Shown here: piece by piece, positions 16,366 to 34,372 of the stretch
How positions within the stretch are numbered: position 1 is the stretch's first letter
How the letters are laid out: each line of letters opens with the position of its first letter
Origin: Leptonemataceae bacterium
GTDB taxonomy: Bacteria > Spirochaetota > Leptospiria > Leptospirales > Leptonemataceae
Length of the DNA stretch: 64,000 nt
Direction: 5' to 3'
Assembly (NCBI GenBank): GCA_965227295.1
Contig: OZ245742.1
Location: 4,192,001-4,256,000, forward strand
Notes under the pieces: model-generated
What the model was told of the DNA's origin: nothing
What the model saw: only the letters and a program-made list of their open reading frames with translations
The model's database searches: none
Translations under genes and position numbers: made by a program

Positions 16366-16448
16366 CGTTAGGGATGCGCAGGGTGCCGCGCAGCGGCAGT
16401 CCGGAGTGCGAAGCACGGAGGACCGAAGCGAAGCGGAGCACTGCGTAA
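16366..16448 (+). other. attL: 5' half of a REP-like repeat + core GCGGAGC (16433-16439) + element arm ACTGCGTAA
   Basis: Matches the 5' half of the intact repeat at 50005-50129 up to the core, then diverges abruptly. Confidence 0.8.
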
Positions 16449-16617
16449 TGCACGGAGTAAATCGGCGTGAAAATGTGTAATTTCGCTTATTTCGCGCGGT
16501 TCGCTTCCCTTATGACCGGGGCGGAGAATACCGCAAGACCGTTTCGGGAAATCCGGCCGCGCAAGCCGGTTTTCGGAGGGTTTGTTGTCCATCCTCCAAT
16601 AAAATTTCCCTATCGTT

Positions 16618-17127
16618 TCAGAATGTTACAAAGGACGCAAGCCGCTTTTGATTTGTCGCTGGAGTTTCCCCGGCCCCTTCGTCCGGTGTGCCGGGGGACG
16701 TGCCGGGGGCCGTCCCTTGTCCTCCCAGCCAGGGCGGGCTAAGGAAGCGTCGCCAGTGACTCAATACGGCATCCGCGTTGTTGATTGATTCAAGTGAGGT
16801 AAATAAAATCCGTTCCCGCCGCGCCGCCGTAACCATGGTACGAGAAAACACATGCATGAACTCTTCCGGGTCGCAATCGTAGACTTCGCATAGTCGCACG
16901 AATTCGACCGGGTCAATACCCCTGCCGCCGCCGTGATCCTCAATCACGGCCAGCCGTTCTAACGTAATCGGCAGTGAGGCGCAAACCCGCGCGACATCCT
17001 CGCGGGCAATGTCTGATAAGATTCGCACACGCTGCAATAGCAGTCCCAGGCGACGGGCTTCCGCCTCACTCCAGACTATCGCCGCCGCCGTCGGAAAGTT
17101 TACGTCTACTATTTCGAATAGTGGCAT
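16618..17127 (-). CDS. Putative XRE-like helix-turn-helix protein
   Basis: LGLLLQRVR...AREDVA...ITLERLAVIEDHG...IDPVEFVRLCEVY resembles an XRE HTH. Confidence 0.55.
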   Translation of the reverse strand: MPLFEIVDVNFPTAAAIVWSEAEARRLGLLLQRVRILSDIAREDVARVCASLPITLERLAVIEDHGGGRGIDPVEFVRLCEVYDCDPEEFMHVFSRTMVTAARRERILFTSLESINNADAVLSHWRRFLSPPWLGGQGTAPGTSPGTPDEGAGETPATNQKRLASFVTF

Positions 17128-17557
17128 CTTCGAGCCCTCCTGTCAATTCCTCTGCCCACGCTGTCCGAACAAGGGTCCGACGGTGTCGCGCCTTGCTCAG
17201 AAAAGATTCTAATTGCCTTTCAAGAACCGTATCGGGTGCGTACGCAATTGCATTGCGAAAGACACTGAAACTGTCCAGGTCCAGCAATTCACATAGCCGC
17301 AAGTATGCATATACTGAATACTTTCCCGGCGTTCCTCTCTCTATAGCCTTCAACCGGTGCTTGCCCATTCCGCGCAGTCGTCGGCACAGTCGAAAAATGG
17401 CGGGAGGCTCAAGCCCTAATTGCAACCGGCGTTCGCGAATCTGCTTTCCGATCCTTCTTACGACAGTGGCGGGCAGAAATAGGCCCTCGTTCGTCTGGCC
17501 GGTCGTGATTTGCGCGATTTTTTTCGCCGCATCTTCGTATGTTTTTGGAGTTAGCAT
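17066..17557 (-). CDS. Putative XRE-like helix-turn-helix protein
   Basis: IGKQIRERRLQLGL...HRLKAIERG...YLRLCELLDL. Confidence 0.6.
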   Translation of the reverse strand: MLTPKTYEDAAKKIAQITTGQTNEGLFLPATVVRRIGKQIRERRLQLGLEPPAIFRLCRRLRGMGKHRLKAIERGTPGKYSVYAYLRLCELLDLDSFSVFRNAIAYAPDTVLERQLESFLSKARHRRTLVRTAWAEELTGGLEDATIRNSRRKLSDGGGDSLE

Positions 17558-17646
17558 AAAACTGAGTTCAAATTCGCGTCCATTTCCCGGTGATTACGCT
17601 TGAATTCTTCGCAATTTGAGGGCGAAAATGATGGAAAAAATTTGAT

Positions 17647-17973
17647 TCATAACGAATTTAAGAGCGCTTTCGCTTCAGCTTCGCCATGCGCGAGCGCAAG
17701 GGGAATGTGACTTTGCGTCAAAATGCTTCCGACTCTTTTGTTTTCGCCCACAAGGACAACGACGCGGCCCCCGCCGGTCTCACAAATCCGCTGTAATTGG
17801 AACAATTGACCGATTGCGGCCGAATCGATAACCAGGACTTGCGTTAAGTCTACAATAATGCGTGAGTAAGATGCAGAATGGATTTTAAATTGTTCGGCCC
17901 ATTTGTGCGCATTGTGCATATTGAAAGTGTCGTCATCGACAATAATAGTTTTCATTCGAGCGCTCATTCTCAT
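17647..17973 (-). CDS. STAS-domain anti-sigma-factor antagonist
   Basis: IIVDLTQVLVIDSAAIGQL (phospho-Ser DS motif), GGRVVVL, 108 aa. Confidence 0.8.
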   Translation of the reverse strand: MRMSARMKTIIVDDDTFNMHNAHKWAEQFKIHSASYSRIIVDLTQVLVIDSAAIGQLFQLQRICETGGGRVVVLVGENKRVGSILTQSHIPLALAHGEAEAKALLNSL

Positions 17974-17978
17974 GCGAC

Positions 17979-18821
17979 TTACAGCGAAAAGGACCAGGAC
18001 AATACAAAGTTATCCTGAGAAAAAGTTAGCGCCGGTAAGTCGCCGTGCTCATCGAAGAATTTCGGGCGCGTGACGCCATGCAGTCGTGAGTCTATCTGCG
18101 CGAGGGCATAGACTGCTATGGCGAGGCCGAGCGAGATTTCTGCACGCGTACGCGCAGCTCGCAACTCTCGTTCGCGTGATGCTGAATCGAAGGGTGCTTC
18201 GTACCACGCACGATCAACCGAGGCCCCGCGCCGCACCAGCTCCCGATTACTGAAATACGCGGCGGTTAAAAACACCGGCCAGGCGATAGCATAGAAACCA
18301 CCCCGATAATAAAAGCCTTCTCCCATATGACCGGCCCCGGGCCAAATGAGGTTGTATGTTTGCAAATCGCTCTTGCGTTCGGCGGCTTTCTTGTCCTGCT
18401 CCAATTTTCTCCTTTTCTGATCTTTGATCGCTGCAATTTCTTCGTTGGCTGATCTTTCATACTCCCGCGTGCGCACATCGAAGCGCTCTACTTTCAATTC
18501 TCTTTCTTTGGCTCCCATGCCCACTTTGAGAGTGTTGTTTTCGAGCTCCAATCGCTCAATCTTTGCCTCGGGAGTTTCCGCGACGATCGATTGCGAATAC
18601 AAAGGGTTAATCGAAATCGATATGATAAGGGCGGCCGTTAATAGGAACAATACCGGCCCCGACGAGATGAACGTATTCTTTCCCGGCGCGTGTAAAGACG
18701 ACGCCGCGCATTGGGCTATCCTCTTCCCCGATGAAATAAAATGTGCCAATTCTTCCATATTCATCTTTAATCTGTTCCTCCGTCCATTCCGCGCCAAACG
18801 CTTCAAACTTCTTTGGAGCAT
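17979..18821 (-). CDS. Exported/membrane coiled-coil protein of the ECF-FecR operon (true start probably downstream)
   Basis: Signal-like segment, coiled coil, LIWPGAGH.G...RG membrane motif, C-terminal aromatic strand. Confidence 0.55.
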   Translation of the reverse strand: MLQRSLKRLARNGRRNRLKMNMEELAHFISSGKRIAQCAASSLHAPGKNTFISSGPVLFLLTAALIISISINPLYSQSIVAETPEAKIERLELENNTLKVGMGAKERELKVERFDVRTREYERSANEEIAAIKDQKRRKLEQDKKAAERKSDLQTYNLIWPGAGHMGEGFYYRGGFYAIAWPVFLTAAYFSNRELVRRGASVDRAWYEAPFDSASRERELRAARTRAEISLGLAIAVYALAQIDSRLHGVTRPKFFDEHGDLPALTFSQDNFVLSWSFSL

Positions 18822-19665
18822 CAGAGAGCAAATCTTTGATGGCCTCTATGGCATGGCGCGACAGTTGAAAGGTTTCGCTGAATTTTTCGCGCTGGCCGTC
18901 GTATTCGACTCCCTCACCGGCGTTAACAATAATGGCTTTCCCGTTTCGGTTGGCCACGCGGACAGAACCTGAAACGACCTGGAGAAACTCCGAATTGTGA
19001 TAGACGCCTAATCTTAATTCGGTTCCAATTAGTGTATAATCGGCCCTGTCCGATGCGATTACGTAGTGTTTCGCCTCCCCGGCCAGGGGGCGCGAAAAAA
19101 CAGTGATATTGCCGTAAGAAACGTAGAGGCGAGCCGTGTTTTTTTTACAGTCCACTCCCGGGAAGCTCACCAGGGAAGGCGGCAAGAAAACCATTCTCGC
19201 GTTGCCACATTGTACGATTACCTGGCCGTGAAATTCATTCGGGAGGACCAGAATATCACCAGCCTTCAGATCACCCGGTGTCGCTCCCGGTATTCGAAGT
19301 TGCTCCTCGTTCCGCTTCAGATAAGCGCCGTTTTCAACTGAAGTTATCAATGCGGCACCGAACGAATTCGGCTGGACGAGTAATCCCCAAAACAATGCAA
19401 AGGCGCCAGCCACAAACAGAAGACTCGCTGCGACCTTCAAATAGAACGGCGTGAATGACTGTTGCACTCCTCCAATCTTGTTGAAGTCTTCGATGTCAGC
19501 GTCAAGACCGGGATACGTCGGAGCGTCGTCCGGTCGTTTCTTTCTTTCTTCAATCTTTTGTAAGATTCGGTCCAGTCGTTCTTTAGAAACGGGTGTATCG
19601 TTGCGTAAGGACTCGAATGTCTTGCGCCATTCTCTGGGGATTCTATCATCATCGTATGAACTCAT
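18607..19665 (-). CDS. FecR-domain transmembrane anti-sigma protein
   Basis: Single TM helix, then LKAGDIL, LYVSYG, IGTE, QVVSGSVRV, VNAGEG; ATGA overlap with the ECF sigma gene. Confidence 0.75.
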   Translation of the reverse strand: MSSYDDDRIPREWRKTFESLRNDTPVSKERLDRILQKIEERKKRPDDAPTYPGLDADIEDFNKIGGVQQSFTPFYLKVAASLLFVAGAFALFWGLLVQPNSFGAALITSVENGAYLKRNEEQLRIPGATPGDLKAGDILVLPNEFHGQVIVQCGNARMVFLPPSLVSFPGVDCKKNTARLYVSYGNITVFSRPLAGEAKHYVIASDRADYTLIGTELRLGVYHNSEFLQVVSGSVRVANRNGKAIIVNAGEGVEYDGQREKFSETFQLSRHAIEAIKDLLSDAPKKFEAFGAEWTEEQIKDEYGRIGTFYFIGEEDSPMRGVVFTRAGKEYVHLVGAGIVPINGRPYHIDFD

Positions 19666-20201
19666 AATGGCTTGATCCCCCTTTTTTTGAATTCCGCTAT
19701 AAGGCTTCTGTTTGCACGCCTCAAAAGTCTACTGGCCCAGCTTTCATGAACGCCCATAACCTGCGCGATCTCAGAGAGGTTAAGGTCACATTCATGACGA
19801 AGCCTCGCGCATTGCGCTTGTTCTGGCGGTAGACGTAAGAGTACGTCCTGATAAATACTTTTGATCGGCGAAGTACTGCTTTCGCGCAATCGCGAAAGGT
19901 GCTCGTTTACTGTACGCTTGACACGGTCGGCTTCTAACTCAAATTCTTTCTCCCGACCGGAGCCCTGCCGCTTCGCATGGTCTTTGCGCAAACCCTCCGC
20001 CACACGATAAAGCAAGGCTCGTCGGATGTACGCGAGCTTGCCCGCCTGGATTTTTCGCCACAGCAATATGAAGGTATCCTGCGCCAGGTCATCACTTAAC
20101 TCAGGATGGCCGGTTTTTTGATCGAGGTACCGGACAAGCTTCTCTTGCTCCCTTTTGTAAATCCGGGTGAGTTCCCGTTCCAATTCCTCGTATTCGCTCA
20201 T
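19662..20201 (-). CDS. ECF-type RNA polymerase sigma factor
   Basis: DDLAQDTFILLW, LYRVA, LLRLPPEQ...LNLSEIAQVMGV. Confidence 0.85.
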   Translation of the reverse strand: MSEYEELERELTRIYKREQEKLVRYLDQKTGHPELSDDLAQDTFILLWRKIQAGKLAYIRRALLYRVAEGLRKDHAKRQGSGREKEFELEADRVKRTVNEHLSRLRESSTSPIKSIYQDVLLRLPPEQAQCARLRHECDLNLSEIAQVMGVHESWASRLLRRANRSLIAEFKKRGIKPL

Positions 20202-20280
20202 TTGAACCGGCAGCAGCTATTAGCCGCTTACTCTGAACCGATCGAGAGACGCGGAAACTTTCCTGGTATCGCAAAAAATT

Positions 20281-20790
20281 TCAATCGGCCGGAAAAAAAT
20301 ACTCTATACGTTGAATTGAATCCCACGCGTACGAGGTTGAACCATTTTGGCCGATCGGAAGGACGGACACCCCCTGCGCATCGTGCCGTGTCAAATGTCC
20401 GATAATCTCTTGATTCTTCCCGGTGATTAAGCGAACCCTGACATCAGTTAAAAGCGCTGTTCGTATACGGCGTACTCTTGCAAGCGGATAGCGGCCCCCG
20501 CCGAGGGAGCTTTCTAAAAGGATGTATGCGTTTTGGCCTGTGGTCTGCCGGTAGATCGTCCCCACGATGACGGTTTCAGGATTAAGGAATTCTATACGCG
20601 CCAATTGCCCCGCTGATTCCCTGGGTGATTCCTCGCCAAAAAGCGTACAGGAGGCGAAAAAAAGCACTGAGCATACCAAAAAAAAACGCCGCAAAGGAAA
20701 GTTTCGGGTGCTCCCGATCGGTTTACATGCGTGGGCGACGAGCACACACAGGGGGCGTTTAGTTATGCGAGTCATAGAAATTTTCACCAT
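20281..20790 (-). CDS. Hypothetical lipoprotein with two small beta domains (start uncertain)
   Basis: Lipobox LFFASC; internal duplication (VIVGTIYRQ / EIIGHLTRH); co-oriented with the sigma operon. Confidence 0.5.
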   Translation of the reverse strand: MVKISMTRITKRPLCVLVAHACKPIGSTRNFPLRRFFLVCSVLFFASCTLFGEESPRESAGQLARIEFLNPETVIVGTIYRQTTGQNAYILLESSLGGGRYPLARVRRIRTALLTDVRVRLITGKNQEIIGHLTRHDAQGVSVLPIGQNGSTSYAWDSIQRIEYFFPAD

Positions 20791-21697
20791 GTTAGTGGTT
20801 CTTATCTCTTCTTTCTTTGCATTGAATTACTGCACAACCATTTTCGGCCAAGCGGGTCAGGATGTAGCAGATTCAGGGCCGCTTTTACTACTCGCGGCCG
20901 GGCTCGGGAACATCGGAACGCCCCTGGATTTGGACGGGGACGGCACCACGGACGGCACCGCCTACGATACGAACGGCGACGGCGTCCTTGATGCCATCGC
21001 CTGGACGCTAACGCCGGGAACGGTTTCAGCTCTACTTGATACGAACAACGATGGGATTTTCGATGCCATCGACACGAACGGCGACGGAACGGCGGAGGCT
21101 CACACCTGTAGTAATACGGGGGGCCTGACTACCGGCGAGAACTGTACCGGCAGTGCCGTTAACATCGTCGCCGGTGGCCTCGACACAGACGGCGACGGGG
21201 CGGCAGACATTAGTTTTCAGACCGACACAAGTGATAGCGGTTCCTCAGGATCGGGTAGCGGAGGGGGGGCTACTCCGGCGACACCAAAATTTATCTTTGT
21301 CACTGCCGCCACATTTGGCGGAATCCTGGGGGGCTTTACCGGAGCGGACGCGCTTTGCAATGCCGACGCAAACAAGCCGAATTCAAGCACATATAAAGCC
21401 GGGCTCGCCGGTAATTCTGCTTTTGCTGCTAACCAGGAGTATACGCGGCCCGACTCAACGACCATTGGAACAACGGACGGCACGGGAAGTCTGACGACTC
21501 CCTTAACAAGTTCAATCGCCGCATCTTCGCCTGTCGAAATTTGGACCGGTGGCGATGGTACGAACTGTAGTAGCTGGACCGCGAATTCTACTTGCGGAAT
21601 TGGACTGGCCACAAGTACAACCGTGACTTTCTGGAACAACGGCAACGAGTTTGCGCCAATCTCGACGAACAACGCTCTATATTGTGTTGAGCAATAA
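20765..21697 (+). CDS. Lipoprotein with DxNGDG repeats and C-terminal DUF1554 (Len/endostatin-like) domain
   Basis: DLDGDG, DTNGDG, DTNNDG, DTNGDG, DTDGDG; KFIFVT...GILGGFTGADALC.ADANKP..YKA...IWTG...LYCVEQ. Confidence 0.8.
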   Translation: MRVIEIFTMLVVLISSFFALNYCTTIFGQAGQDVADSGPLLLLAAGLGNIGTPLDLDGDGTTDGTAYDTNGDGVLDAIAWTLTPGTVSALLDTNNDGIFDAIDTNGDGTAEAHTCSNTGGLTTGENCTGSAVNIVAGGLDTDGDGAADISFQTDTSDSGSSGSGSGGGATPATPKFIFVTAATFGGILGGFTGADALCNADANKPNSSTYKAGLAGNSAFAANQEYTRPDSTTIGTTDGTGSLTTPLTSSIAASSPVEIWTGGDGTNCSSWTANSTCGIGLATSTTVTFWNNGNEFAPISTNNALYCVEQ

Positions 21698-21711
21698 ACT
21701 ACAAGAGGAAA

Positions 21712-22182
21712 ATGTATTGCATCAGGGGCGCACGGCGTTTTTATACCGTCGTGCGTCTTGCATTTATCCTTTTTGTTTCTTTGGCTTTGTCGGCCTCTTG
21801 TCGCAAGCCAGAGTATTCGCAGCTCAGCTCACCCTCAAGAGTTAAGAGCTACCTTGCCGGTACTGCCTGGAAATGCGAGACTAGAGAGCTTACGTCTTTT
21901 CTAAGATTTTGGTCTTCGCCCCGGGGTGACAAACTCTTGTTCTCGCTCCTCCAATCGGAGCGAAACAAGCCAGGCGGAGGGCTTGTCTTAAGGGTTGAGG
22001 GGGGAACGCTAAGGCTGTACGATGACGGCTTAGTCGGCTTTTCTTATCCAGGGCGGACAGGAGAATTCACCCAACAGCGGTTCTTTGTTCATGCTTCGGA
22101 CAATAAAAAGCTTCGCATGATAAATACAAGCGTCGTGGATTGCATTCGCCAAATGACAAAGACGCCCGGTACAGTTCTCTAA
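21712..22182 (+). CDS. Hypothetical lipoprotein
   Basis: Hydrophobic segment + LSASC lipobox; W-x-C motif shared with 22188-22619. Confidence 0.55.
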   Translation: MYCIRGARRFYTVVRLAFILFVSLALSASCRKPEYSQLSSPSRVKSYLAGTAWKCETRELTSFLRFWSSPRGDKLLFSLLQSERNKPGGGLVLRVEGGTLRLYDDGLVGFSYPGRTGEFTQQRFFVHASDNKKLRMINTSVVDCIRQMTKTPGTVL

Positions 22183-22187
22183 ATGCT

Positions 22188-22619: not shown

Positions 22620-22662
22620 GATGGTAGACGCTCCGTCGCTTCTAACGTTCTGACAAGCAAAT

Positions 22663-23506: not shown

Positions 23507-23565
23507 TTTTAGCCTTTTCTCCCAGACGATCGCCCACAGTTTCCAGCCGACACAAGACACCCGAA

Positions 23566-24087
23566 TCACTCCACACCATACGATTCCGCCGAACGCGACG
23601 ACGCCAGCAACGCAAACACCAAAACACCCACGGCAAACACCAGCCCCCCGACCAACCACGAATCGAGCGGCGTACCTGCAGGTACTCCGTAAACCGGCCG
23701 CAACCGATCGAACCAGGCCCCGGTCAGCTTCGTAACTTTCACCGGCCGGGATTTAGAGAGTTCCACAAAATAAAACGGCGACGGCCGCGCGTCTACGTGT
23801 AAGTGACGGTCGGCCGGGGGATAGCCGAGGGCGACACCACCGGGCCAGCTCGTAGCCGTGAGCCGTCGCGCGACGTGCCACAACGTTGCCCGGCAGCGAT
23901 CGTCCGCGGCCGGGCACCCGAAATCCACCGCGGCGCGTCGACCATGAAAACCGCTATCCCCGCGGTCGGTCGACGTCACCGGGAGATCTCCGCCGCCGGC
24001 GCGCGTTACCGCCCGGATGATTTGACGCTGCGCCGGTGACAGTGCGGCGAAGCGGGCGCGGTCCTCGAGTACGTCGCGAGCCTTCAT
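23566..24087 (-). CDS. Peptidase M15-like (LAS) metallopeptidase with C-terminal TM anchor
   Basis: VTSTDR, SGFHGRRAAVDF (H-x6-D), GGVALG, HLHVDAR (HxH). Confidence 0.75.
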   Translation of the reverse strand: MKARDVLEDRARFAALSPAQRQIIRAVTRAGGGDLPVTSTDRGDSGFHGRRAAVDFGCPAADDRCRATLWHVARRLTATSWPGGVALGYPPADRHLHVDARPSPFYFVELSKSRPVKVTKLTGAWFDRLRPVYGVPAGTPLDSWLVGGLVFAVGVLVFALLASSRSAESYGVE

Positions 24088-24434: not shown

Positions 24435-24896
24435 TTACCTTTTCTTTCTTTTGCCCGACCGCGAAGTCTGACCGCCGAAGGCCCCGGACGCCCACAGCAC
24501 AAAACCACCGACCGCCAGACCGCCCAGAATCAAAGCGACCGGCGGGCCGTCGTCCGGTCGCTCCGGCGGTTTGACGGGGTTTACAAAGATTTCCGGGGGC
24601 GGTCGCCAGTCCGGATCGATCGCCCCGGGCTGCGGTTTCGGGACGGGATCAGACGCGACCACCACCGGGGACGGCGCGGGCGGCCGCACGGGTACAGGGG
24701 CCGGAGCCGTGCCGGGGATCGCCAGCACCAGGCCCGGCCAGATCGTATACGGCGACCGGTTCTGAAATGTATACACCCGCGAGCCGATGCGCACCGTACG
24801 CCCGTGGTTCGCGCGGGCGATTTCCGGCCAGCGCACTCCGTAGCGTGCGCCGATCCGTGAAAGTGTATCCCCTGATCTAACTGTATATTGAATCAT
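24435..24896 (-). CDS. LysM-domain protein with Pro-rich linker and C-terminal TM anchor
   Basis: YTVRSGDTLSRIGARYGVRWPEIARAN...TIWPGLVLAIP. Confidence 0.9.
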   Translation of the reverse strand: MIQYTVRSGDTLSRIGARYGVRWPEIARANHGRTVRIGSRVYTFQNRSPYTIWPGLVLAIPGTAPAPVPVRPPAPSPVVVASDPVPKPQPGAIDPDWRPPPEIFVNPVKPPERPDDGPPVALILGGLAVGGFVLWASGAFGGQTSRSGKRKKR

Positions 24897-25309: not shown

Positions 25310-26257
25310 TTAGTACGAATAATCCCATTCGAGCATAACCAGGCCCGACGCCGCACTGACGCTGGACGTGCCCGGTACGTATTCATCGCCCCCGTTCCCG
25401 CCCTTGCTCCCGGCACCGAACGTCTGATACGGCGCGGCCCCACCGTTCGAGCCCTCGCCGCCGGATGGGCCGACCGGAGGCTGCCCGCCGAACCGCGCAC
25501 CCCCGCTACCGCCCGGGGCGGTAGCCAGCGCCCCGAAGGACGACGCGCCGCCGGGGTAGCCCGTCGTTTGATTGGCAACACCCGGCCCGCCCGCGCCGAC
25601 CGTTACCAGGTAGGTGGCCCCGGGAACCAGTGAGACCGGGATTTCAACCAGTCCTCCGGCTGCGCCTCCGCCGCCACCGGCACCGCCGCCGCCGTCATCG
25701 CCGTTCTCACCACCGGCGCCGCTCCCGCCGCCACCCACACAGCGCAACGTAATTTCAAAATCAAGGCTCGCCGGACAGAGGAAAGAATGTGTCCCCGGCG
25801 TGGTCCACAGCACGACGTCGTTAGGGTACAGGGAACGTAAGATTAACTTCTTAGTTTGCAGCTCCTGGCCTTCGCTTAACGACGAAGCTTCACCGCCGGT
25901 CGCCGTGACGATCGAACCGTCAAGACCGACGGCGAGAAATTCGCCGATATGCAACAGCGGCGCGGCGATGGAAACATCATCCAGGTCATAAAAACCATCG
26001 GGTTTCGCTAGTAACGCGGCCAGGTCGGCCTTTAGATCCAGTTCAAGTTGTAAGTCGTGAATGTCGGCTATATCATGTAAGTGAATCGCATCCGCTTTCG
26101 CGGCCAGCTCCGTTTCTAACGAAACGATGTCCGGGATACTGTGCGCATGGCCCAGGGCGGCCTTGTTCTGTAGCTCCGACTCCAGCCCCTCGATGTCCTG
26201 GACCTGGAACAGATCCGCGAAGTCCCGCGCTTCGATGCGTTCACCGTTCGCGGGCAT
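25310..26257 (-). CDS. Fibre/spike-like protein: phage-tail H-x-H repeats + glycine-rich C-terminal domain
   Basis: DIEGLESELQNKA / HAHSIPDIVSLETELAAKA / HLHDIADIHDLQLELDLKA; then TPGTHSF...VGGGGSG...GGGGGAAGG...PGATYLVTVGAGG; TGATG coupling at 26257. Confidence 0.75.
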   Translation of the reverse strand: MPANGERIEARDFADLFQVQDIEGLESELQNKAALGHAHSIPDIVSLETELAAKADAIHLHDIADIHDLQLELDLKADLAALLAKPDGFYDLDDVSIAAPLLHIGEFLAVGLDGSIVTATGGEASSLSEGQELQTKKLILRSLYPNDVVLWTTPGTHSFLCPASLDFEITLRCVGGGGSGAGGENGDDGGGGAGGGGGAAGGLVEIPVSLVPGATYLVTVGAGGPGVANQTTGYPGGASSFGALATAPGGSGGARFGGQPPVGPSGGEGSNGGAAPYQTFGAGSKGGNGGDEYVPGTSSVSAASGLVMLEWDYSY

Positions 26258-26913
26258 CAGTACGCCCCCGCGTTCAAGAAATCCGGTAATTGATGGTTGT
26301 ACGCCTCGACGTCTACCTCTATGACGAACCGGACCCGGGTTGATGCGTAAACTTCCGTTTGCTTCAGGCTTGCCAGATACGGTATGAGTGCCAGATAGCC
26401 GCCGCGCGAATAAAACGGCAAATCCAGGCTTGCGGCGTATGTCGTCCCCTGGATCATTAACCCTTCGTGAAATTCTTCTAAATTGTTTATGAAACCGTAC
26501 GCGCTCCACTCCGGATAATACGCCGCGTCCGCCAGACGATAGCCGATCCGAAACGGGAAACCCCGGTTTCGCGCGTGGGGAGAGACGAGCAGTGTTTCCG
26601 GAAATCCCGTGTAGCTGGAAAGGAGCGGCGTCTCCGGCGCGTACAGGATTTCGGCCCCCTGGTCGAAATGCGCGGCGAATCGCTGGTACGGCTGGCCGGG
26701 GAGACTGACCAGGGCCAGCGTTACCGGCGTGTCCAGCGCCGTCTGTGAGCGGAAGTAATGGGCCTGGTTTAGAAACGACCGGATACGTAGGTACACGTTC
26801 TGCGGCACTTCCGCCAGGCCGATGGAAAACGTTTCACTGTACAGATCGTTCGCCGCATCGTACGATTGCGAAAACACCACCTGTTGACTGACTGTTTCGA
26901 CGACCAGGCCCAC
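26257..26913 (-). CDS. Hypothetical beta-rich structural protein (vertex/penton candidate)
   Basis: Lies between the capsid candidates and the fibre; alternating hydrophobic strands. Confidence 0.5.
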   Translation of the reverse strand: MGLVVETVSQQVVFSQSYDAANDLYSETFSIGLAEVPQNVYLRIRSFLNQAHYFRSQTALDTPVTLALVSLPGQPYQRFAAHFDQGAEILYAPETPLLSSYTGFPETLLVSPHARNRGFPFRIGYRLADAAYYPEWSAYGFINNLEEFHEGLMIQGTTYAASLDLPFYSRGGYLALIPYLASLKQTEVYASTRVRFVIEVDVEAYNHQLPDFLNAGAY

Positions 26914-26916: not shown

Positions 26917-27315
26917 TTACCCCGTGGTTTCGCAGATCAGCAACACCGATACGCCCCGGGCCGGGACGGCATATGCAAAGGTTTGCAGGTGCATTTCCAT
27001 TTCGCGCCCGTTCGGCCAGGTGAGCGGACGGATCTTTTGAAAGACCCGCTCCATATCGCGCGGCGCTCCAATCTGACTTAACTCGACCGCGTCCTGAAAC
27101 GTAAGATTCGACGCGTTCGTACCCTGGGGTTTCAGGGCAAAGAGCACGTCGTCAAACACGGTGGGTGCGGCCGGTTCCGGATAACGCACGACCAGCCCGA
27201 TGATCTCCAGGGTGTGGCCGCTCTGGTTCGTGCGTGTGCCGACCTTGCCGAGTGTAGCCGACGCGCTGACCGGGTTATCGTTCACGATGCGATAGAGCAG
27301 AGTTTCGCGGGCCAT
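26917..27315 (-). CDS. Candidate small capsid protein (single jelly-roll-like size and pattern)
   Basis: 132 aa; strong GGAGG RBS; about eight short alternating beta strands; no TM. Confidence 0.45.
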   Translation of the reverse strand: MARETLLYRIVNDNPVSASATLGKVGTRTNQSGHTLEIIGLVVRYPEPAAPTVFDDVLFALKPQGTNASNLTFQDAVELSQIGAPRDMERVFQKIRPLTWPNGREMEMHLQTFAYAVPARGVSVLLICETTG

Positions 27316-27336
27316 GCCTTAACCTCCGGTCGTCGT

Positions 27337-28017: not shown

Positions 28018-28050
28018 AGTCTTCGCTCCTGAGTTATGTTCGCCGTACAT

Positions 28051-28641
28051 TTACGCGGCGTAATAGTCGTAGTAATCGCCGGGGTCGTCGTCTCCGTGTA
28101 AGAGTTCGTCGAGTTCCGCCGCCTTCTCATGGCGATACACGGGATCGCCCCGCATTTCGTAATCGTCTTCCGGCATGGGCAGCGCTCCGCTCTCTTCCTC
28201 ACGCAAAGCCTCCAGCATTTCGCGGCGCTGGTCGCCGTCCGCCAGCGCCCACGCGAGCGCGAGCATTTGCCGGGGGTCCTGGATTTCGGCCTGGGCTGCG
28301 GGCGGCCCGGCCAGCTGGCCGGTAGCGCTGGCAACGGCGGGAAAGCCCATCGCCGAGAACCCGCGCGGCAGACCATAGGCCAGCGTACCGATGAAGACAC
28401 CCGCGATAGCCGGGGCAATCCAGGCATTGTCTTTGTAGGTCTTCGAGTCCAGCCGGTCGCCGATCAAAAGCGCCCCGACACCCAGGGCCGTAGCCAGACC
28501 GGGCCGGACCCAGGGCGTTAGCTTGCTGCCCTCTAAGAATTCCTCGCCGATCTTGCCGAGACTGTGCGTGAGCCACATACCGCCGAGAGCCGCGCCGCCC
28601 GCCATGACCAGGCCGAGTTTGTTCGTCTGTACATCACACAT
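28051..28641 (-). CDS. Membrane protein with three Gly/Ala-rich hydrophobic segments and an acidic tail
   Basis: LGLVMAGGAALGGMWL, GLATALGVGALLIG, WIAPAIAGVFIGTLAYG; D/E/Y-rich C-terminus. Confidence 0.7.
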   Translation of the reverse strand: MCDVQTNKLGLVMAGGAALGGMWLTHSLGKIGEEFLEGSKLTPWVRPGLATALGVGALLIGDRLDSKTYKDNAWIAPAIAGVFIGTLAYGLPRGFSAMGFPAVASATGQLAGPPAAQAEIQDPRQMLALAWALADGDQRREMLEALREEESGALPMPEDDYEMRGDPVYRHEKAAELDELLHGDDDPGDYYDYYAA

Positions 28642-28642
28642 T

Positions 28643-28894
28643 TCATCGCCTCCGGGCTTTCGCCTTTTTCTTCGCTTTCTTCTTCGCGCGTTTCTTCGTG
28701 GTCTTCTTACGCGCTTTCTTCCTGGCCTTTTTCTTGACTTTCTTCTTCGTCTTCTTTTTGACCTTCTTCTTAACTTTCTTTTTCTTCTTTTTAGCGCCCG
28801 CCTGGGCCGCTTTCTTGATGGCGTTAAATTTACTTTCGGTCATGCACACCTGCTTTTTGCGTATGCCGGAACTGAATAGACTTCCTAACATCAT
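28643..28894 (-). CDS. Lysine-rich histone H1/protamine-like protein
   Basis: KKKKKKVKKKVKKKTKKKVKKKARKKARKKTTKKRAKKKAKKKAKARRR; fits exactly between coupled neighbours. Confidence 0.8.
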   Translation of the reverse strand: MMLGSLFSSGIRKKQVCMTESKFNAIKKAAQAGAKKKKKKVKKKVKKKTKKKVKKKARKKARKKTTKKRAKKKAKKKAKARRR

Positions 28895-28902
28895 CGTACT
28901 TC

Positions 28903-30318
28903 CTATTTGGATTTTCCCCGCATGGCGATGGCGAGCACGGCCACCCCGACCAGGGCCGCGCCGCCGATATAGACGGCGGTCTTAGGAATTCCGCCGATCG
29001 TGTCCGACGCCTTCGCCGGGGGCGGGGATTGCAGCATAACGCGCGGCATCCCACCCGGCCGGGGGGCCGGGGCCACGTAGACGCGCGGCCGGGCCACCGG
29101 CGCGGGACGCGGAGCCGGGCGCGGTGCGGGCCGGGGCCGCGCGAACTGTAACGCCGTCCTAAGCAGCTGCTGGCGTTCGCGGGCCTTGCGGGCCGCATCG
29201 GCCCGGCGTTTCGCGCTCATTTGCTGCGCGATTTGCAGCGGATTGATTTTGCCGATGAGCGAACCGATGCCACCGCCGGAGGCGAGGCCGGGCAATAGCG
29301 ACGAAAGACCGCCCGCCGCCCCGGCCGCGCCGGTGATGCCCGGCACCACCGCGGCGAGCGCGGGCAGAAAGCCCAGCTCGCCCGCCAGCGTCCCGGCGGC
29401 GAAACCGTAGAGCGCCGCCGCGCCGGGATCGTCGTAATAATAGCTCTGTTGCCCGTAGCCCGTATCCGCGTAGGGATCGCTGTAATACGGGTCTTTTGCG
29501 GCGTAGGAATCGGCGTACGCGTCGCCGTAGGGATCTTCCGCGTACGGATCGTATCCGTACGGGTCTTCCGTCATCGCGTAAGGATCTTCAGCCATACCGT
29601 ACGGGTCTTCGCCCATGCCGTAAGGATCTTCCGCCGCGTACGGATCTTCGCCACCGCCGGGCATCATACCATCCGCGCCCGGCATCATCGACGTAGCGGC
29701 CTGGAGCACTTCGCCCGCGCCTTCCGCGATGCTCGAAACGAACTTGCCCGCGTCCTGGCCGATGTTTGATACAAACTTGCCGTAACCCTTCGCGGCGTGG
29801 CTTACGCCTTTACTCAGATCTTTAAAGCCCCGGGAAAGCGGTTTCGTTACGTGATTCAAGTTGACTTTCGGCAGCTTGAATTTGGGTAACTTGAATTTCG
29901 GAAGCCTGATTTTCGGTAACTTGAACTTAGGTAGTTTCAAATTCATTCGAAACTTGCCCAGGCCCTTAAACGCCTTCCCGAAATTGAACTTTGGGAGCCT
30001 CATCTTGAATCCTTTGAACTTGAACGCGTTTCCGAAGGACTTACCGAGAGAGAACCGGCCGAGTTCTGCGCCGGAGAGTTCGTCTGTAATGACCAGCGTA
30101 TCGGGAAACCAGGTGCCATCGATGGGCGTGTCATCGCCCGCCAGCGTCCACTGGTTCACGTCATCGACGACGTAGTCACCTTCTAACGATACCGCGACGT
30201 GCTCGGGCAGACCGTCGTAGAAATCGCCCCACATTTGCACGGCTTCGCCGTACAGTGTGTGCGTTTCATGGGCGCGTAAGTCGTCGCCGTGGAGTTCTAA
30301 GAGTGCAACCACGCGCAA
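28903..30318 (-). CDS. Modular low-complexity protein (KLPKF repeats, EDPY repeats, RPAP repeats, C-terminal TM)
   Basis: 471-aa ORF, TTG/GTG start, internal repeats visible in protein and DNA. Confidence 0.75.
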   Translation of the reverse strand: MRVVALLELHGDDLRAHETHTLYGEAVQMWGDFYDGLPEHVAVSLEGDYVVDDVNQWTLAGDDTPIDGTWFPDTLVITDELSGAELGRFSLGKSFGNAFKFKGFKMRLPKFNFGKAFKGLGKFRMNLKLPKFKLPKIRLPKFKLPKFKLPKVNLNHVTKPLSRGFKDLSKGVSHAAKGYGKFVSNIGQDAGKFVSSIAEGAGEVLQAATSMMPGADGMMPGGGEDPYAAEDPYGMGEDPYGMAEDPYAMTEDPYGYDPYAEDPYGDAYADSYAAKDPYYSDPYADTGYGQQSYYYDDPGAAALYGFAAGTLAGELGFLPALAAVVPGITGAAGAAGGLSSLLPGLASGGGIGSLIGKINPLQIAQQMSAKRRADAARKARERQQLLRTALQFARPRPAPRPAPRPAPVARPRVYVAPAPRPGGMPRVMLQSPPPAKASDTIGGIPKTAVYIGGAALVGVAVLAIAMRGKSK

Positions 30319-30419
30319 AAGTTAATACTATCGCGCGGGGTTTGTATAGCGGGAAATGGGTTAGTGTGTGGGGATTGGCCGCTACGTGTCCGGGTGGTGG
30401 CAGCAAAAACAATACTATT

Positions 30420-30815
30420 TTAGTGCCGGGGAAAGAACCGCCATTCTTGCTCTTGTCCTGAAGTATGCCGTGGTTGCTCTTGTACTTCACCGGGTTGCAC
30501 GAAATATGCACCGATTACATACGATGCAGCTACAGAAGAAAGAAAACCGACAATAAAACTAACCGTAAGCGATGCGAAATAGCCGATGGTCTTCTGCCAC
30601 CACTTCGGTTTAAACTCAGGAAGCCAAGTTACATTTCCGCATGACTGACACCTGACCCTTGAGCCCGCGTTGTGGTCTGTGATATTAAAAGTTGCCGAGC
30701 AATTGTCGTTTGGACACGGCATCACCCGGATGGTCTCAACCTGAGGAGAGCCCCCCACGATGTCAGGAATTATTGCGCCCATAAACAGTCTCCCTAACTT
30801 GCCTGAACTGTCCAA
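30420..30815 (-). CDS. Zinc-ribbon membrane protein
   Basis: CPNDNC...CQSC followed by a TM helix; AT-rich. Confidence 0.55.
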   Translation of the reverse strand: MDSSGKLGRLFMGAIIPDIVGGSPQVETIRVMPCPNDNCSATFNITDHNAGSRVRCQSCGNVTWLPEFKPKWWQKTIGYFASLTVSFIVGFLSSVAASYVIGAYFVQPGEVQEQPRHTSGQEQEWRFFPRH

Positions 30816-31300
30816 CGCTTAACTAGCCGATCGAAACCTGCGTAGACCTCCATGCCTCCGTGGTGTTCGCGCAGAAAGTGGATTATTGGCCCGTGACTCT
30901 TGTGTAATGAGAGCACGGCTCTTTGAAAGTATCTCGCGAGGACTTCCTCGTCGGCAGTTCGGTTTTCAATGGCCAGGGAAACCATTTCCAAATAATTGAG
31001 AACCTCCGTAGCGGCACGGTATGACCCTTTGTATGTTACTATCGCATCTGTGGGATCATTATTAAACGCTAGTAAGAAGAGCGGTTTTACTGACAGCTGT
31101 ACGCGTTCTATATACTCTGGCCCGGTCCATTGCCGGATGTAGTCCATAGCATTTTCTCGTTTCTGAAAGCGTAGATTCCTTCTATGTGCCACGATAAGGA
31201 CGCCGGGAATTAACAAGATGGACAATATTTGCGCAATCTGTATCGTCAGCTCGATCAAATCCATTCCAACCCCTCCCGAATATGCCTCAGTAAGTTTCAC
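30794..31300 (-). CDS. DUF4760-like membrane-anchored protein
   Basis: N-terminal TM; VLNYLEMVSLAIE...DEEVL..YF...F..L..RW; AT-rich. Confidence 0.6.
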   Translation of the reverse strand: MKLTEAYSGGVGMDLIELTIQIAQILSILLIPGVLIVAHRRNLRFQKRENAMDYIRQWTGPEYIERVQLSVKPLFLLAFNNDPTDAIVTYKGSYRAATEVLNYLEMVSLAIENRTADEEVLARYFQRAVLSLHKSHGPIIHFLREHHGGMEVYAGFDRLVKRWTVQAS

Positions 31301-31354
31301 ATTTTAGGCATTTCTAAGTAGGTCAAGCATCTTACGAGACTACCTTGACTTCAT

Positions 31355-31543
31355 TTAAGGGCTTTGCAGGGATTTTTCCTTCTTTATTCGACGAACGGTC
31401 CGTTCTGAAATATTTATTGAACCCATCCATGGAAAATCTGGGTCACCTCGTTTAAAGAAGGAAACAACGTCAGGAGCCTGCCAGCCTTGGCTAATTAGCT
31501 CCCTAATCTTTTGTCGCACAGGTTCAGGTATCCGCCGTCCCAT
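31355..31543 (-). CDS. Small helix-turn-helix protein
   Basis: RQKIRELISQGW...DVV...NISERTVRRIKK; GGAGG RBS. Confidence 0.7.
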   Translation of the reverse strand: MGRRIPEPVRQKIRELISQGWQAPDVVSFFKRGDPDFPWMGSINISERTVRRIKKEKSLQSP

Positions 31544-32018
31544 AAAAAACCCTCCGAAACTCTTCATCATACAGGCGCCCCCCAAACACACACCGATCAT
31601 CATACGTTGCATCGGTGGGCACCCAGGCCCCGCCTAACTCAATCTCAGGATAAACATGATGAGGCCCGGCCCCCGGCCGTGTGCCGACACACGCCAGCCG
31701 CGAGCGCAGTCCTTTCAAAAACGCAAACGCTAAAAGTAAGATGGCCTTGTCGTCACAATCCCGCGCAAACGGCCAGTCTGGCCGGACGGTGTAACGCGGG
31801 CGGGAAAGCATTTCCACGCCCGGCGGATCGGCGTGATACTTCAACCGCCGGACGTGGTTATAAAACTCCTCGAAAGACAGGTGAGCAAACGGGAGCAAAT
31901 CGGCGGCGTAGCGCCGCGCCATGTCGAACATACGCGCGACGGTAATTTCATACGACGCCAGGTCCTGCGTAAGCTTCGCCTGAATCGAAAGCAGGGTGTC
32001 ACGCAGGGAGTTAATCAG
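31524..32018 (-). CDS. Transglutaminase-like cysteine protease (start uncertain)
   Basis: Y..DP.G.E, RDCDDKAILL (Cys), HHVYPE (His), WVPTDAT (Asp). Confidence 0.8.
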   Translation of the reverse strand: MINSLRDTLLSIQAKLTQDLASYEITVARMFDMARRYAADLLPFAHLSFEEFYNHVRRLKYHADPPGVEMLSRPRYTVRPDWPFARDCDDKAILLLAFAFLKGLRSRLACVGTRPGAGPHHVYPEIELGGAWVPTDATYDDRCVFGGRLYDEEFRRVFYGTADT

Positions 32019-32301
32019 ACACCCCCGGCGCACGGCCCGGCTGGAAGATTTGCAGGCGGGCGAGACGTTCCCGCATCCGCGCGACGTGGTCAGAAATATC
32101 CCGGCCGGACAAGACCAGGCCGAAAGCGCGTTCCAGGTTAAACAGGATGGCTTCCACTTCCTGCACATCGCTCACGATGGTTTCCGCCGCTTCCGCGTAG
32201 TACTTCATAGCCCGTTCCAGGGCTTCGACGCGCTCCGCGAGATCTTCCGGCGCATCCCCGGCGACCGCCGCCGGAGTAGGCTGATTACTTGCATCATTCA
32301 T
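32011..32301 (-). CDS. Small helical hypothetical protein
   Basis: TAATG coupling to the upstream gene; amphipathic helices. Confidence 0.6.
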   Translation of the reverse strand: MNDASNQPTPAAVAGDAPEDLAERVEALERAMKYYAEAAETIVSDVQEVEAILFNLERAFGLVLSGRDISDHVARMRERLARLQIFQPGRAPGVSD

Positions 32302-33071
32302 TATACAGGCTCCTGACCGGCCGGAATCCCGGCGGGCGCACCCTGCGCCGCCGCCAACCCCTGGCCGCTAAGTATCTCTCGAATCGTTCCCAAATTACGC
32401 AGGACTTCGCCGCCCAGGTCCAGGCCCCGATAAAACATCCGTTCCCCGGGCGTCTGGTTCTCCGTGGACAGACGGTCAGACTGGCGTTTTAGATCGTGGT
32501 CGTGTTCCTCGTGCAACCGATCAATCCGCCGCTCATAAGACCGGCGCATCTCGTCCATATCTTCGCGGATCAAAGTCAGGCTGCGTTCATGGCCTCGCTG
32601 TAGATCCTCAAACATGGTGCGAAACGTGCCCTGCATCGATTCCATCATCATTTTCATGGAAGCGGTAGCGGCGTTGTCCCGGATCTTCTGCGCCTCATCC
32701 AGCTTGTGTTCCATCTTTTCCATGTAGGTAAAGGCACGATTGAGTACGGTCTGTTCGGTAGGATCGGGGAACGGAGAGAGCGCCGCCGCGCCCCCTCCGT
32801 TCTTCCCGTTCTTCGCGGCGGCGCTGTTGCCGTGCATCGGCCGCGTGACCTGGCCGGAGAAAACCCGCGTCCAGTCCTTATCCTTCTCGCCCCGGGCGAA
32901 CAGTTCCACGGTGTATTCCCCCGGCTCCAGGTCCGGCAGATCCGGGCTATGGAGTTCTACTGCGTCCATACCGGCGCGATGGATGCGCAAACGGTAACGC
33001 GCATCCTCGCCGTATTCCGATTTGATGCGCGACGCCTCTTTAAGAAATTGTTTGAGAGTAAACTTTAACAT
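32301..33071 (-). CDS. Hypothetical protein with beta N-terminus and long coiled coil
   Basis: AGGGAG RBS directly after the integrase; 256 aa. Confidence 0.65.
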   Translation of the reverse strand: MLKFTLKQFLKEASRIKSEYGEDARYRLRIHRAGMDAVELHSPDLPDLEPGEYTVELFARGEKDKDWTRVFSGQVTRPMHGNSAAAKNGKNGGGAAALSPFPDPTEQTVLNRAFTYMEKMEHKLDEAQKIRDNAATASMKMMMESMQGTFRTMFEDLQRGHERSLTLIREDMDEMRRSYERRIDRLHEEHDHDLKRQSDRLSTENQTPGERMFYRGLDLGGEVLRNLGTIREILSGQGLAAAQGAPAGIPAGQEPV

Positions 33072-33077
33072 GTTAAT

Positions 33078-34181
33078 TTAATCTCCCTTTTTCCTTTTGC
33101 TCATGTCTTTTTTCGCGTGAGGCCCCCGTGTCGATGACTTGCGTGAAACGTTAGAGCGGCGACGCCCCTTCTTTTGCTCCTCGCTGTACACCATTCGTCG
33201 TAGCTCTGCACAGGACGGGACGTCCGAAGCCTTTAAAGATCCTTGTTGATAAAACTGGATAAACGTTTGTACGTTTCGCCAGCCGCCGTGTTTCATGATG
33301 GCCGGGAGCATTTCCGGGGAGGCATTGTAGAACCATTGCGCAAACGCGTGCCTGAATTTGTGCGGGGAAAAGTGCGTCCCATGTCCAAATACTTTCCGGC
33401 ACGCCATTTTACAGCGGAATAAGGCGTGATGACGGTCAAACGGAGTCCCGTCTGTCTTCTCGAAGAGAAATACCTTGCCTTTGAAAACCTCGCGGATGCG
33501 TTTATAGACGTCGTAGCGCAATTCCCGCGTGTCGATGCTCCCCCCCTTTTGTCGGACGGTGTAGTAAATACCGCCGTCGGGCGTTAGGTGATCGGTATTG
33601 AAATCGGACAGTCGGAGGGAGCACAGTTCGCTGATGCGTAGGGCACTGAACAAAAGAAACTCGATCAGGGCGGAGTCGCGTTCCAGCGCTTCATCGATTA
33701 ACTGCATGACCTGTTTTAGCGTGGGGACGATGATTCGGGCCGGTACACGCTTGAGTGAGGTCCACTTCTTAAAGGTCCGGTCGATTGTGGTTTGCAGCGC
33801 GAAATCGAGATCGTATGCGTCCCCGTAGTAGCTGATAACGGCCCCCTTGAATTGAAACGCCACGTTACGGACTGTTTGGGGCTTGTAGCGCTTTAGATGC
33901 TCTTCCAGGTACGCTGTAATATCCTGCAAGGTCATCCCGTTCGGATGTTTGGCGTTAATTTTCCGGAGATTGGAGTTTTCCGCTTTTTTCCGGGTCAAAG
34001 GGAGCCGGGGAATCACCAAACCCGAATAGTAGTCTAGAAGATTCGTCGCGGAAAATGCACCGGCTGACGCGGGCGTGTCGGGATTCCGGACAATTTCCGG
34101 CCCCTTAAAATCCTTAAACTTTTTTCGTTTATATTGAATAAACGAAACAACATTTGATGTTTCCATACATACAGCGGACAT
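33078..34181 (-). CDS. Tyrosine recombinase/integrase
   Basis: SALRISEL (R), QKGG (K), PHKFRH (HxxR), KHGGW (H/W), TFIQFY (Y); adjacent to attR. Confidence 0.92.
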   Translation of the reverse strand: MSAVCMETSNVVSFIQYKRKKFKDFKGPEIVRNPDTPASAGAFSATNLLDYYSGLVIPRLPLTRKKAENSNLRKINAKHPNGMTLQDITAYLEEHLKRYKPQTVRNVAFQFKGAVISYYGDAYDLDFALQTTIDRTFKKWTSLKRVPARIIVPTLKQVMQLIDEALERDSALIEFLLFSALRISELCSLRLSDFNTDHLTPDGGIYYTVRQKGGSIDTRELRYDVYKRIREVFKGKVFLFEKTDGTPFDRHHALFRCKMACRKVFGHGTHFSPHKFRHAFAQWFYNASPEMLPAIMKHGGWRNVQTFIQFYQQGSLKASDVPSCAELRRMVYSEEQKKGRRRSNVSRKSSTRGPHAKKDMSKRKKGD

Positions 34182-34242
34182 ACTATTCCCCTGAAACCGG
34201 CAAGGGAAAAAACACTTGTCAGCCGCTTACTATATTTACTAG

Positions 34243-34372
34243 TTACGCAATTGCGGAGCCCGGAGTAGCCCGGCGCCCGGCCGGCGGAATTGAGCGACGC
34301 GCCTTGCGCGTCGTCGGGTTCACAAGTCGCTACGACCGCGACTTGTGCGCGGCCCGGCCGGGCGCAACGCCC
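34243..34372 (+). other. attR: element arm TTACGCAAT + core GCGGAGC (34253-34259) + 3' half of the REP-like repeat
   Basis: CCGGAGTAGCCCG after the core matches the intact repeat at 50089-50101; ends AACGCCCAAA like other copies. Confidence 0.8.

Follow-up and report, generated by a model that had tools for sequence, protein, structure and literature searches.

A tyrosine-integrase element inserted in a multicopy structured repeat of a Leptonemataceae genome

Introduction

Why an element that carries its own site-specific integrase should sit in a sequence of which the host genome holds some 233 copies is the question raised by a locus of a Leptonemataceae bacterium (Spirochaetota; Leptospirales). 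The locus lies in a stretch of 64,000 nucleotides, hereafter the window, from assembly GCA_965227295.1 (contig OZ245742.1, positions 4,192,001 to 4,256,000, forward strand). The source genome, G000, is a single contig (C1) of 5.94 Mb, in which the window is G000:C1:4192001-4256000. The lambda- and Xer-type tyrosine integrases of temperate phages and genomic islands insert at tRNA genes or at dif, and to our knowledge site-specific integrases are single-site enzymes in the textbooks. The original prediction for this locus was a tyrosine-integrase element attached to a multicopy palindrome resembling the repetitive extragenic palindromes (REPs). Here we analyse this element, e1, along with a paralogous element in the same genome, e2, and a homologous element, e3, in genus g24 of the same order (genomes G038, G101, G098, G121 and G102); two further genomes, G001 and G002, belong to the same genus as G000. 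We consider it probable, at roughly 85%, that e1 is a virus-like element inserted into one copy of a multicopy repeat by its own Xer-like tyrosine recombinase through double-strand exchange, and that the targeting of repeats is a trait of the element group.

Results

The element is bounded on either side by the heptamer GCGGAGC (Table 1). Direct reading gives GAAGCGAA-GCGGAGC-ACTGCGTAA for the left junction and TTACGCAATT-GCGGAGC-CCGGAGTAG for the right junction, in agreement with the cores that had been predicted, and the shared core is exactly 7 bp long because the bases bordering the heptamer differ between the junctions. The element itself measures 17,813 bp, or 17,820 bp if one core is counted, the latter being the size that had been proposed for its putative circular form. 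The two inner ends, ACTGCGTAA and TTACGCAAT, do form the 8/9 inverted repeat described earlier, with one additional T at 34252 between TTACGCAAT and the right core. The interior of e1 and each of its end motifs occur just once in the 5.94-Mb genome, and parts of the element have a G+C content of 50-52% versus ~59% in the flanks.

The outer sides of the two junctions match one intact sequence, a twin of the interrupted copy that lies outside the window on the reverse strand (G000:C1:5147704-5148048). The left and right flank matches overlap on this twin by exactly the 7-bp core. The left 74 nt are identical to it throughout (74/74) and the right 120 nt at all positions save one (119/120). When the empty site is built from the coordinates, 333 of 348 columns are identical to the twin, with most mismatches falling in the last ~48 columns. 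Judged from these alignments, chance cannot explain the reconstruction of the flanks over ~345 bp. The members of the repeat family were collected by two rounds of nhmmer seeded with the twin, and the family match covers 16259-16447 for the left half (model positions 2-190) and 34248-34421 for the right half (model positions 172-343). The proposal that the outer halves rebuild a host repeat holds, although the repeat is longer than had been thought (~345 bp; 16257-16439 plus 34253-34424). The intact copies originally named in its support, at 50005-50129 and 12502-12617, are real members of the family but more diverged, and the decisive copy is the twin outside the window.

In both same-genus genomes the genes that flank e1 (cysS and a SpoU-type methyltransferase gene on the left, a HiPIP-like gene and a GNAT gene on the right) are adjacent, with no element between them, and no repeat was found between them either. 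Breakpoints elsewhere in element-free relatives had been named as an observation that would speak against the prediction, and none was found elsewhere in G001 or G002. Nor was a close homologue of the e1 integrase found in G001 or G002 (best E = 3.8e-5 and 1.7e-5). Among contigs from public sequencing runs, the element is present in two runs of one study, a third run is without anything of it, and the contigs break within the repeat. One contig joint leads from 16432 to 34253; as its sides are short and its depth is that of the genome at large, it reflects the twin repeat copy rather than an excision product. These contigs contain no attP joint. A truncated right half of the long repeat also occurs at G000:C1:2838575-2838735, beginning 11 nt past the point where the core position starts and 98.8% identical to window positions 34264-34424, flank included; it may be left over from an earlier event at a site of this kind.

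The target repeat family comprises 233 nhmmer matches that span 34.2 kb of the genome; about 6-7 copies are long, and more than 200 have a ~130-nt core in common. The insertion point of e1 falls in the best-conserved segment of the repeat, GACCGAAGCGAAGCGGAGCCC. The heptamer GCGGAGC stands at the aligned place in 146 of the 233 copies and the 14-mer GAAGCGGAGCCCGG in 23. A 25-nt attB is present at one exact site, at 12 sites within one mismatch, at 23 within two and at 39 within three. Among the 170-172 distinct rows of the alignment, one outer-stem pair appears as G-C 101 times and as C-G 62 times, one hairpin-stem pair as G-C 84 times, as C-G 28 times and as T-A 21 times, and the three pairs of the second stem (P2) swap to A-T and C-G. 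Pairing is lost when the partner column is slid by 1-2 positions. The hairpin loops are mostly G-N-A triplets. The e1 core comprises the 3' half of a mini-hairpin, GCGAAGC, then a short junction, then one base of the second stem, the first of its 3' strand. Covariation of this kind indicates that the target repeat is a folded, hairpin-rich intergenic element with several helices, which may act as RNA or as single-stranded DNA. It is a multicopy extragenic palindrome whose unit is larger and more complex than that of a classical REP. No RAYT gene (Y1 transposase, PF01797) was matched in G000 by a search that, as a control, found matches in 6 of 14 named genomes, and the repeat is therefore REP-like only loosely: what survives of the earlier label is a structured multicopy repeat with hairpins. 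Rfam gave no match within the window.

The integrase gene starts 72 bp from the right core. Its product scores 61.5 bits against PF00589 (cut-off 27.1) and matches the phrog_1 integrase family at E = 1.5e-23. Residues R182, K212, H274, R277, W301 and Y311 are invariant in seven aligned sequences, the e1 integrase and six relatives. We take these residues to have the roles of the catalytic R..K..H-x-x-R..H/W..Y series, of which the e1 integrase, by alignment, carries an intact set. The enzyme falls short of every curated NCBIfam cut-off; Xer-like models come closest, with scores far below their cut-offs, and the integron-integrase model TIGR02249 gives 22 bits for e1 and 26 bits for the e2 paralogue against a cut-off of 265. 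A HMMER scan of 1.84 billion representatives returned 557 integrase matches at E<=1e-3, only four of them at E<=1e-30, and in word-based protein searches the integrase and the neighbouring ORF256 (open reading frame, ORF) are near-orphans. No close integrase relative was found in genome contigs or metagenome contigs, neither the integrase nor ORF237 had a match among 50,697 phage records, and the integrase alignment found one 29% locus in viral contigs. Across the phylum, 39 of the 401 sampled genomes contain a match at E<=1e-25 to a profile built on the integrase group. No convincing repeats were seen beside the homologues in G320, G345, G272 and G266. Between the core and the integrase start lies the 15-mer AGTAAATATAGTAAG, which has two occurrences only in the genome, one in e1 and one in e2, and which may be a promoter or a binding site.

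The paralogous element e2 has its integrase at G000 2989291-2990292 (30% identity to that of e1 over 348 aa), followed in collinear order by counterparts of ORF256 (51%), ORF96 (55%) and ORF85 (60%). It splits one unit of a different repeat family, a 330-bp tandem repeat with 365 nhmmer matches over 74.4 kb. The left junction reads ...ATAC-CACAACTCCCG-TTGTGTAAAG and the right junction ...CTTTA-CACAACTCCCG-CTCAGCC, and the intact 330-bp unit adjoining e2 reads ATACCACAACTCCCGCTCAGC. The 11-bp core CACAACTCCCG occurs 134 times in the genome versus 4 occurrences expected. As in e1, inverted repeats form the inner ends and the integrase reads inward, its start lying ~75 bp away from the core. Both targets have GC-NNN-GC-GG(G)AG at the crossover, and the orientation of the element to this motif is identical. 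As cargo, e2 carries a polymorphic-toxin-like protein of 1,843 aa, which has a pretoxin-HINT domain, together with helix-turn-helix regulators and small downstream ORFs. The 330-bp repeat is also seen in the window, at 6922-8263, 44333-44648 and 57506-57897, in tandem arrays of 2-5 units; it makes up 1.25% of G000 and has one weak match only in five related genomes, two of them of the same genus.

The homologous element e3 measures ~18 kb (18,134 bp in G101, with 35.8% G+C) and is collinear with e1 in its integrase (29%), ORF214 (39%), part of ORF471, ORF132 (31%) and ORF218 (31%). Its junctions have the 7-bp core CCCGCCA in common, and its target is a ~65-nt hairpin repeat, ...CCCCGCCC-loop-GGGTGGGGAACTAGA / CCCGCCA / CCCAATA.GTCCTCT.TATCAC, of which the five g24 genomes searched hold 8, 7, 11, 14 and 5 exact-pattern copies; the reversed pattern, as a control, gave 0 in all five. 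The five left flanks of e3, in G038, G101, G098, G121 and G102, are all different, and four of the five insertions are in copies of the hairpin repeat, that in G121 being a variant copy. The e3 copies of G038, G101 and G098 are 78-89% identical at the DNA level, and their host flanks differ. All four of the others checked (G101, G102, G121 and G098) have the flanks of the G038 site with an uninterrupted repeat between them and no element, and G102 has the G101 site in the same unoccupied state, its repeat intact. G098 carries e3 in the next repeat copy, 3.4 kb away, and this same copy is intact in G101. Alternative repeat copies are thus demonstrably used by e3. The search for homologous elements in repeats at other loci, which had been suggested as a check, was positive twice, with e2 in a second repeat family and e3 at five loci. 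Integrase homologues in G110, G112 and G087 had no e3-type end within the 600-700 bp examined.

Two observations concern the surroundings of e3. A tRNA-Gly gene lies ~240 bp outside attL in G101, near the repeat copy used by e3 and not overlapping it. The flanks of the G101 site are ~150 kb apart and inverted in G038 (263432-266480 versus 414974-418685, C1), and likewise in G121 (C18, 564093-567148 versus 710203-713551). In both genomes an exact hairpin-repeat copy lies within ~100 bp of the end of the left-flank segment; near the right-flank segment a copy was seen in G038 only. This suggests an inversion between copies of the hairpin repeat in G038 and G121.

Table 1. Features of e1 and its target repeat in the window, and the paralogous element e2 (genome coordinates)
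Feature	Position	Strand	Remarks
Element e1, integrated	16440..34252	.	17,813 bp; single copy; absent from syntenic G001/G002 site
Left (5') half of interrupted ~345-bp repeat copy, outer attL	16257..16439	+	98.4% identity over 183 bp to twin, G000 5147866-5148048
Core GCGGAGC, left junction (attL)	16433..16439	+	Read directly; equals 7-bp overlap of both flank matches on twin
Integrase-distal inner end ACTGCGTAA, inverted repeat arm	16440..16448	+	8/9 complementary to 34243-34251
STAS-domain protein (cargo block)	17647-17973	-	
280-aa ORF (cargo block)	17979-18821	-	
352-aa protein (cargo block)	18607-19665	-	Weak cupin match
ECF-type sigma factor (cargo block)	19662-20201	-	
Cargo block	17647..20201	-	ECF sigma factor, 352-aa protein, 280-aa ORF, STAS
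LysM-domain protein	24435..24896	-	PF01476 E 1.4e-10; phrog_380 endolysin E 1.6e-9, LysM part only
Tail-fibre-like protein	25310..26509	-	PF12789 (phage tail repeat) and PF21722 (glycine-rich domain); phrog_863 E 2.7e-22
ORF218	26257-26913	-	In e3 too; tblastn 31% identity, E 1e-16
ORF132	26917-27315	-	In e3 too, same order as ORF218; tblastn 31% identity, E 2e-6
ORF85, core-module gene common to e2	31355..31612	-	60% identity; no family match
ORF214, common to e3	31524..32168	-	39% identity over 162 aa; tblastn E 1.3e-21
ORF96, core-module gene common to e2	32011..32301	-	55% identity
ORF256, core-module gene common to e2	32301..33071	-	51% identity; no family match
Tyrosine recombinase (integrase), 367 aa	33078..34181	-	PF00589, phrog_1; reads inward from right end
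15-mer AGTAAATATAGTAAG, between core and integrase start	34226..34240	-	Identical in e1 and e2
Integrase-proximal inner end TTACGCAAT, inverted repeat arm	34243..34251	+	Read directly
Core GCGGAGC, right junction (attR)	34253..34259	+	Read directly; equals 7-bp overlap on twin
Right (3') half of interrupted repeat copy, outer attR	34253..34424	+	94.1% identity over 170 bp to twin
Target repeat, diverged copy	12496..12628	+	nhmmer E 1.1e-15
Target repeat, inverted copy	12687..12826	-	nhmmer E 6.6e-21
Target repeat, uninterrupted copy	49959..50128	+	nhmmer E 2.3e-28; sequence read
Element e2, 12.7 kb	G000:C1:2989217-3001919		Paralogous integrase and shared module

Discussion

The junctions, the twin and the empty sites lend themselves to a simple model of integration. 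The circular form of e1 would carry an attP in which both inner ends surround one core, and the integrase would exchange strands with a double-stranded copy of the repeat inside the identical 7-bp GCGGAGC, presumably cleaving at the edges of the 7 bp. The attB in this model is one copy of the ~233-copy intergenic repeat rather than a unique gene end, with the mini-hairpin (GCGAAGC) on one side of the crossover and a covarying stem's 3' strand on the other. Such an exchange between attP and attB would yield both observed junctions and be precisely reversible. If multicopy-repeat targeting is a trait of the element group, several to more than 100 potential landing sites would therefore be open to each element. 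For e1 itself the use of more than one copy is put conditionally because it has a single insertion; e1 may use others, and it may be active at present.

It is possible that the integrase is effectively specific for one or very few sites, reading beyond the conserved core of the repeat (for instance a 25-nt attB in near-exact form, or the subfamily of long, ~345-bp copies), and that the multicopy nature of the target is of little consequence for e1. Indeed, e1 is single-copy, the twin is the only other exact match to the 25-nt attB, with 12 sites within one mismatch, and the long copies number only ~6-7. However, the homologous e3 occupies five loci in five genomes, the 11-bp core of e2 is present 134 times, and the e1 core falls in the segment that is best conserved across the ~233 copies. 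We therefore regard such narrow specificity as unlikely, though worth keeping in mind.

A more daring scenario is that the integrases read a hairpin form of the DNA, that the host repeats serve as genome-wide, attC-like landing pads for whole viruses, and that integrase-driven exchange between repeat copies also causes chromosomal inversions, a candidate being the ~150-kb one with ends at repeat copies in G038 and G121; we think this improbable. Also improbable is the variant in which the integrase recognises the folded, single-stranded hairpin of the repeat in the manner of integrons and attC, with one strand recombined. The folding itself is appealing in this respect, as the target covaries, folds and is rich in G-N-A triloop hairpins, and a stem-loop stands beside the core in all three families: GCGAAGC for e1, GC-NNN-GC for e2 and CCCCGCCC-loop-GGGTGGGG for e3. 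However, the identical cores of 7, 11 and 7 bp and the inverted-repeat inner ends are what ordinary double-strand exchange needs and produces, the score of 22 bits against the integron-integrase model is far from the cut-off of 265, and one e3 insertion (G102) lies outside any hairpin repeat. Folding is not needed to explain the data.

That e1 is a cut-and-paste or copy-paste transposon is hardly credible. The arrangement of short terminal inverted repeats inside a short direct repeat is formally transposon-like, with the 7 bp as target-site duplication and the 9-bp ends as transposon inverted repeats, but no transposase domain was found in the 29 ORFs scanned, a tyrosine recombinase stands at the element end, and the "duplication" measures 7 bp for e1 and 11 bp for e2, where it overlaps the inverted repeat. 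Moreover, the same 7 bp are present at every e3 insertion and in the empty sites, which points to pre-existing identity rather than to an arbitrary target duplication. Equally far-fetched is the notion that the repeat halves belong to the element and that the "intact" copies are excision or deletion scars (solo ends), for, although long copies are scarce and the flanks hardly differ from the twin, compensatory changes in the stems mark the ~233 copies as a family that is old and diversified, none of them contains element-end sequence, and the empty sites of g24 hold an intact repeat between conserved host flanks.

Several points weigh against the double-strand integration of a virus-like element into a multicopy target as we propose it. 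No attP junction or excised site was seen in the assembled contigs of three public runs, which break inside the repeat. Both e1 and e2 occur once, and no second insertion site of e1 was seen. The 8-bp inverted arms are 10 bp apart in e1 versus 6 bp in e2, and the binding sites and cleavage points of the two elements are therefore only putative. The e3 insertion in G102 is outside the hairpin repeat and has little beyond the core in common with the others, so that recognition may be of the core and not of the repeat as such. The region upstream of a more distant integrase homologue, in G013, is single-copy, and no shared module was seen there. Finally, no terminase, portal or capsid gene was recognised in the 29 ORFs of e1 or the 24 ORFs of e3, among which distant folds may remain, and "virus" is therefore what we infer rather than what we observe.

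The preferred reading, integration by double-strand exchange into a repeat copy, places e1 beside several known systems. Like lambda- and Xer-type systems, e1 has a PF00589 recombinase at one end, an identical short core in attL and attR and inverted-repeat inner ends, and the empty site is precisely restored in relatives of element carriers. It differs from them in that attB is a high-copy, non-coding, structured repeat (~233, ~365 and 5-14 copies for the three elements) and in that the integrase lies outside the curated subfamilies. No arm-binding site or excisionase was identified; the conserved 15-mer near the core and the small ORF85 are what was noted in this respect. Integron integrases recombine multicopy, imperfectly palindromic attC sites, which were first described as Vibrio cholerae repeats. 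While e1 resembles this system in the pairing of a tyrosine recombinase with a multicopy, imperfectly palindromic repeat, it is an 18-kb unit with its own integrase rather than a cassette, and its core identity and inverted arms fit double-strand exchange. The integrase of Stx phage Phi24B reportedly uses several natural sites, and ICEclc is said to use several tRNA-Gly genes. There, too, one integrase serves more than one chromosomal site, but these sites are a handful of genes or pseudo-sites and not a dedicated repeat family.

Multicopy intergenic repeats are also inhabited by elements with other enzymes. The recombinase of the Neisseria Nf prophages is IS110/Piv-type and transposase-like, not a tyrosine recombinase. 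According to a passage in PMC3898611, the filamentous prophage Nf1/MDA has as its chromosomal target the commonest member of the ~700-copy intergenic dRS3 family, and recombination between dRS3 copies is suggested to cause rearrangements. The multicopy intergenic repeat as a prophage target is the common feature; unlike e1, Nf1/MDA is filamentous, and dRS3 is 20 bp long. The insertion sequences (ISs) ISPpu9, ISPpu10, ISPa11, ISPsy8, ISRm19 and ISRm22 insert specifically into REPs, described in PMC1525189 as neutral multicopy targets. Elements of the e1 type likewise insert into multicopy extragenic repeats, but they are 12.7-18 kb long and carry tyrosine integrases, whereas these ISs are 1-2 kb long and carry transposases, and the target is no REP/RAYT system. 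We found no tyrosine-integrase element in REP-type repeats described in the open-access literature. The insertion of tyrosine-integrase elements into multicopy structured repeats appears to be new, and so does the element family that carries it.

The inhabitants of REP-type repeats known so far are small ISs and one filamentous phage with another class of enzyme. Here, related tyrosine-integrase elements of ~13-18 kb have settled on three unrelated multicopy structured repeats. They offer a natural system for the trade-off that an integrase faces between specificity and number of sites, they show what makes intergenic repeats safe harbours, and they permit testing of the integrase contribution to rearrangements between repeat copies. 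For a poorly tractable bacterial group they provide integrases with many native landing pads for genetics. Moreover, they bring to light a family of small virus-like elements, so far undescribed, in which capsid and packaging genes are not recognisable.

Gene content

Among the e3 gene products are spanins, a primase/helicase resembling VapE, a fibre-like protein and an endolysin of the VanY type (24.9 bits, cut-off 25; phrog_6523 at E = 1.7e-11), whereas the lysis and host-recognition genes of e1 are limited to the fibre-like protein and the LysM protein. Because of the shared structural block and the e3 lysis cassette we interpret the family as small temperate viruses of a type not yet described, e1 itself being probably temperate, virus-like and a member of an undescribed ~18-kb family in this bacterial order. 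ORF132 and ORF218 have no family match and are candidate virion proteins, and ORF85 is a candidate small DNA-binding regulator or directionality factor. The AlphaFold model of the ORF256 product (predicted local distance difference test, pLDDT, 73.6) shows a small alpha/beta N-domain and a 100-residue helix, a coiled coil, and is uninformative. ORF256 is present in 1 of 156 genomes of the order, G000 only, and neither its alignment nor the end-motif pattern had a match in viral contigs. The Atlas matches all score below 0.9 and serve as leads only. Further products of e1 are a DUF4760 protein, a DUF1554 protein and several membrane proteins.

In ORF173 (window 23566-24087, minus strand), residues H48, D55, H95 and H97 are invariant in four sequences, and a relative with 87% identity is encoded on a 7-kb contig. 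An assignment as an M15-type peptidase was dropped, its only basis being an H..D..HxH pattern seen by eye. Pfam gave nothing for ORF173 at E up to 5, the PDB profile search returned 0 matches, its model (pLDDT 46.5) was unusable, hhalign detected no similarity to the e3 endolysin, and its alignment had no match in metagenome, genome or viral contigs.

Two adjoining reading frames on the minus strand have unusual compositions. The first (28643-28894) encodes an 83-aa protein made up nearly entirely of lysine, arginine and alanine repeats, and the second (28903-30318) a 471-aa protein in which PKF/KLP and DPYG repeats are combined with a membrane anchor at the C-terminus. It is possible that these two proteins are DNA-condensing and membrane components of a virion.

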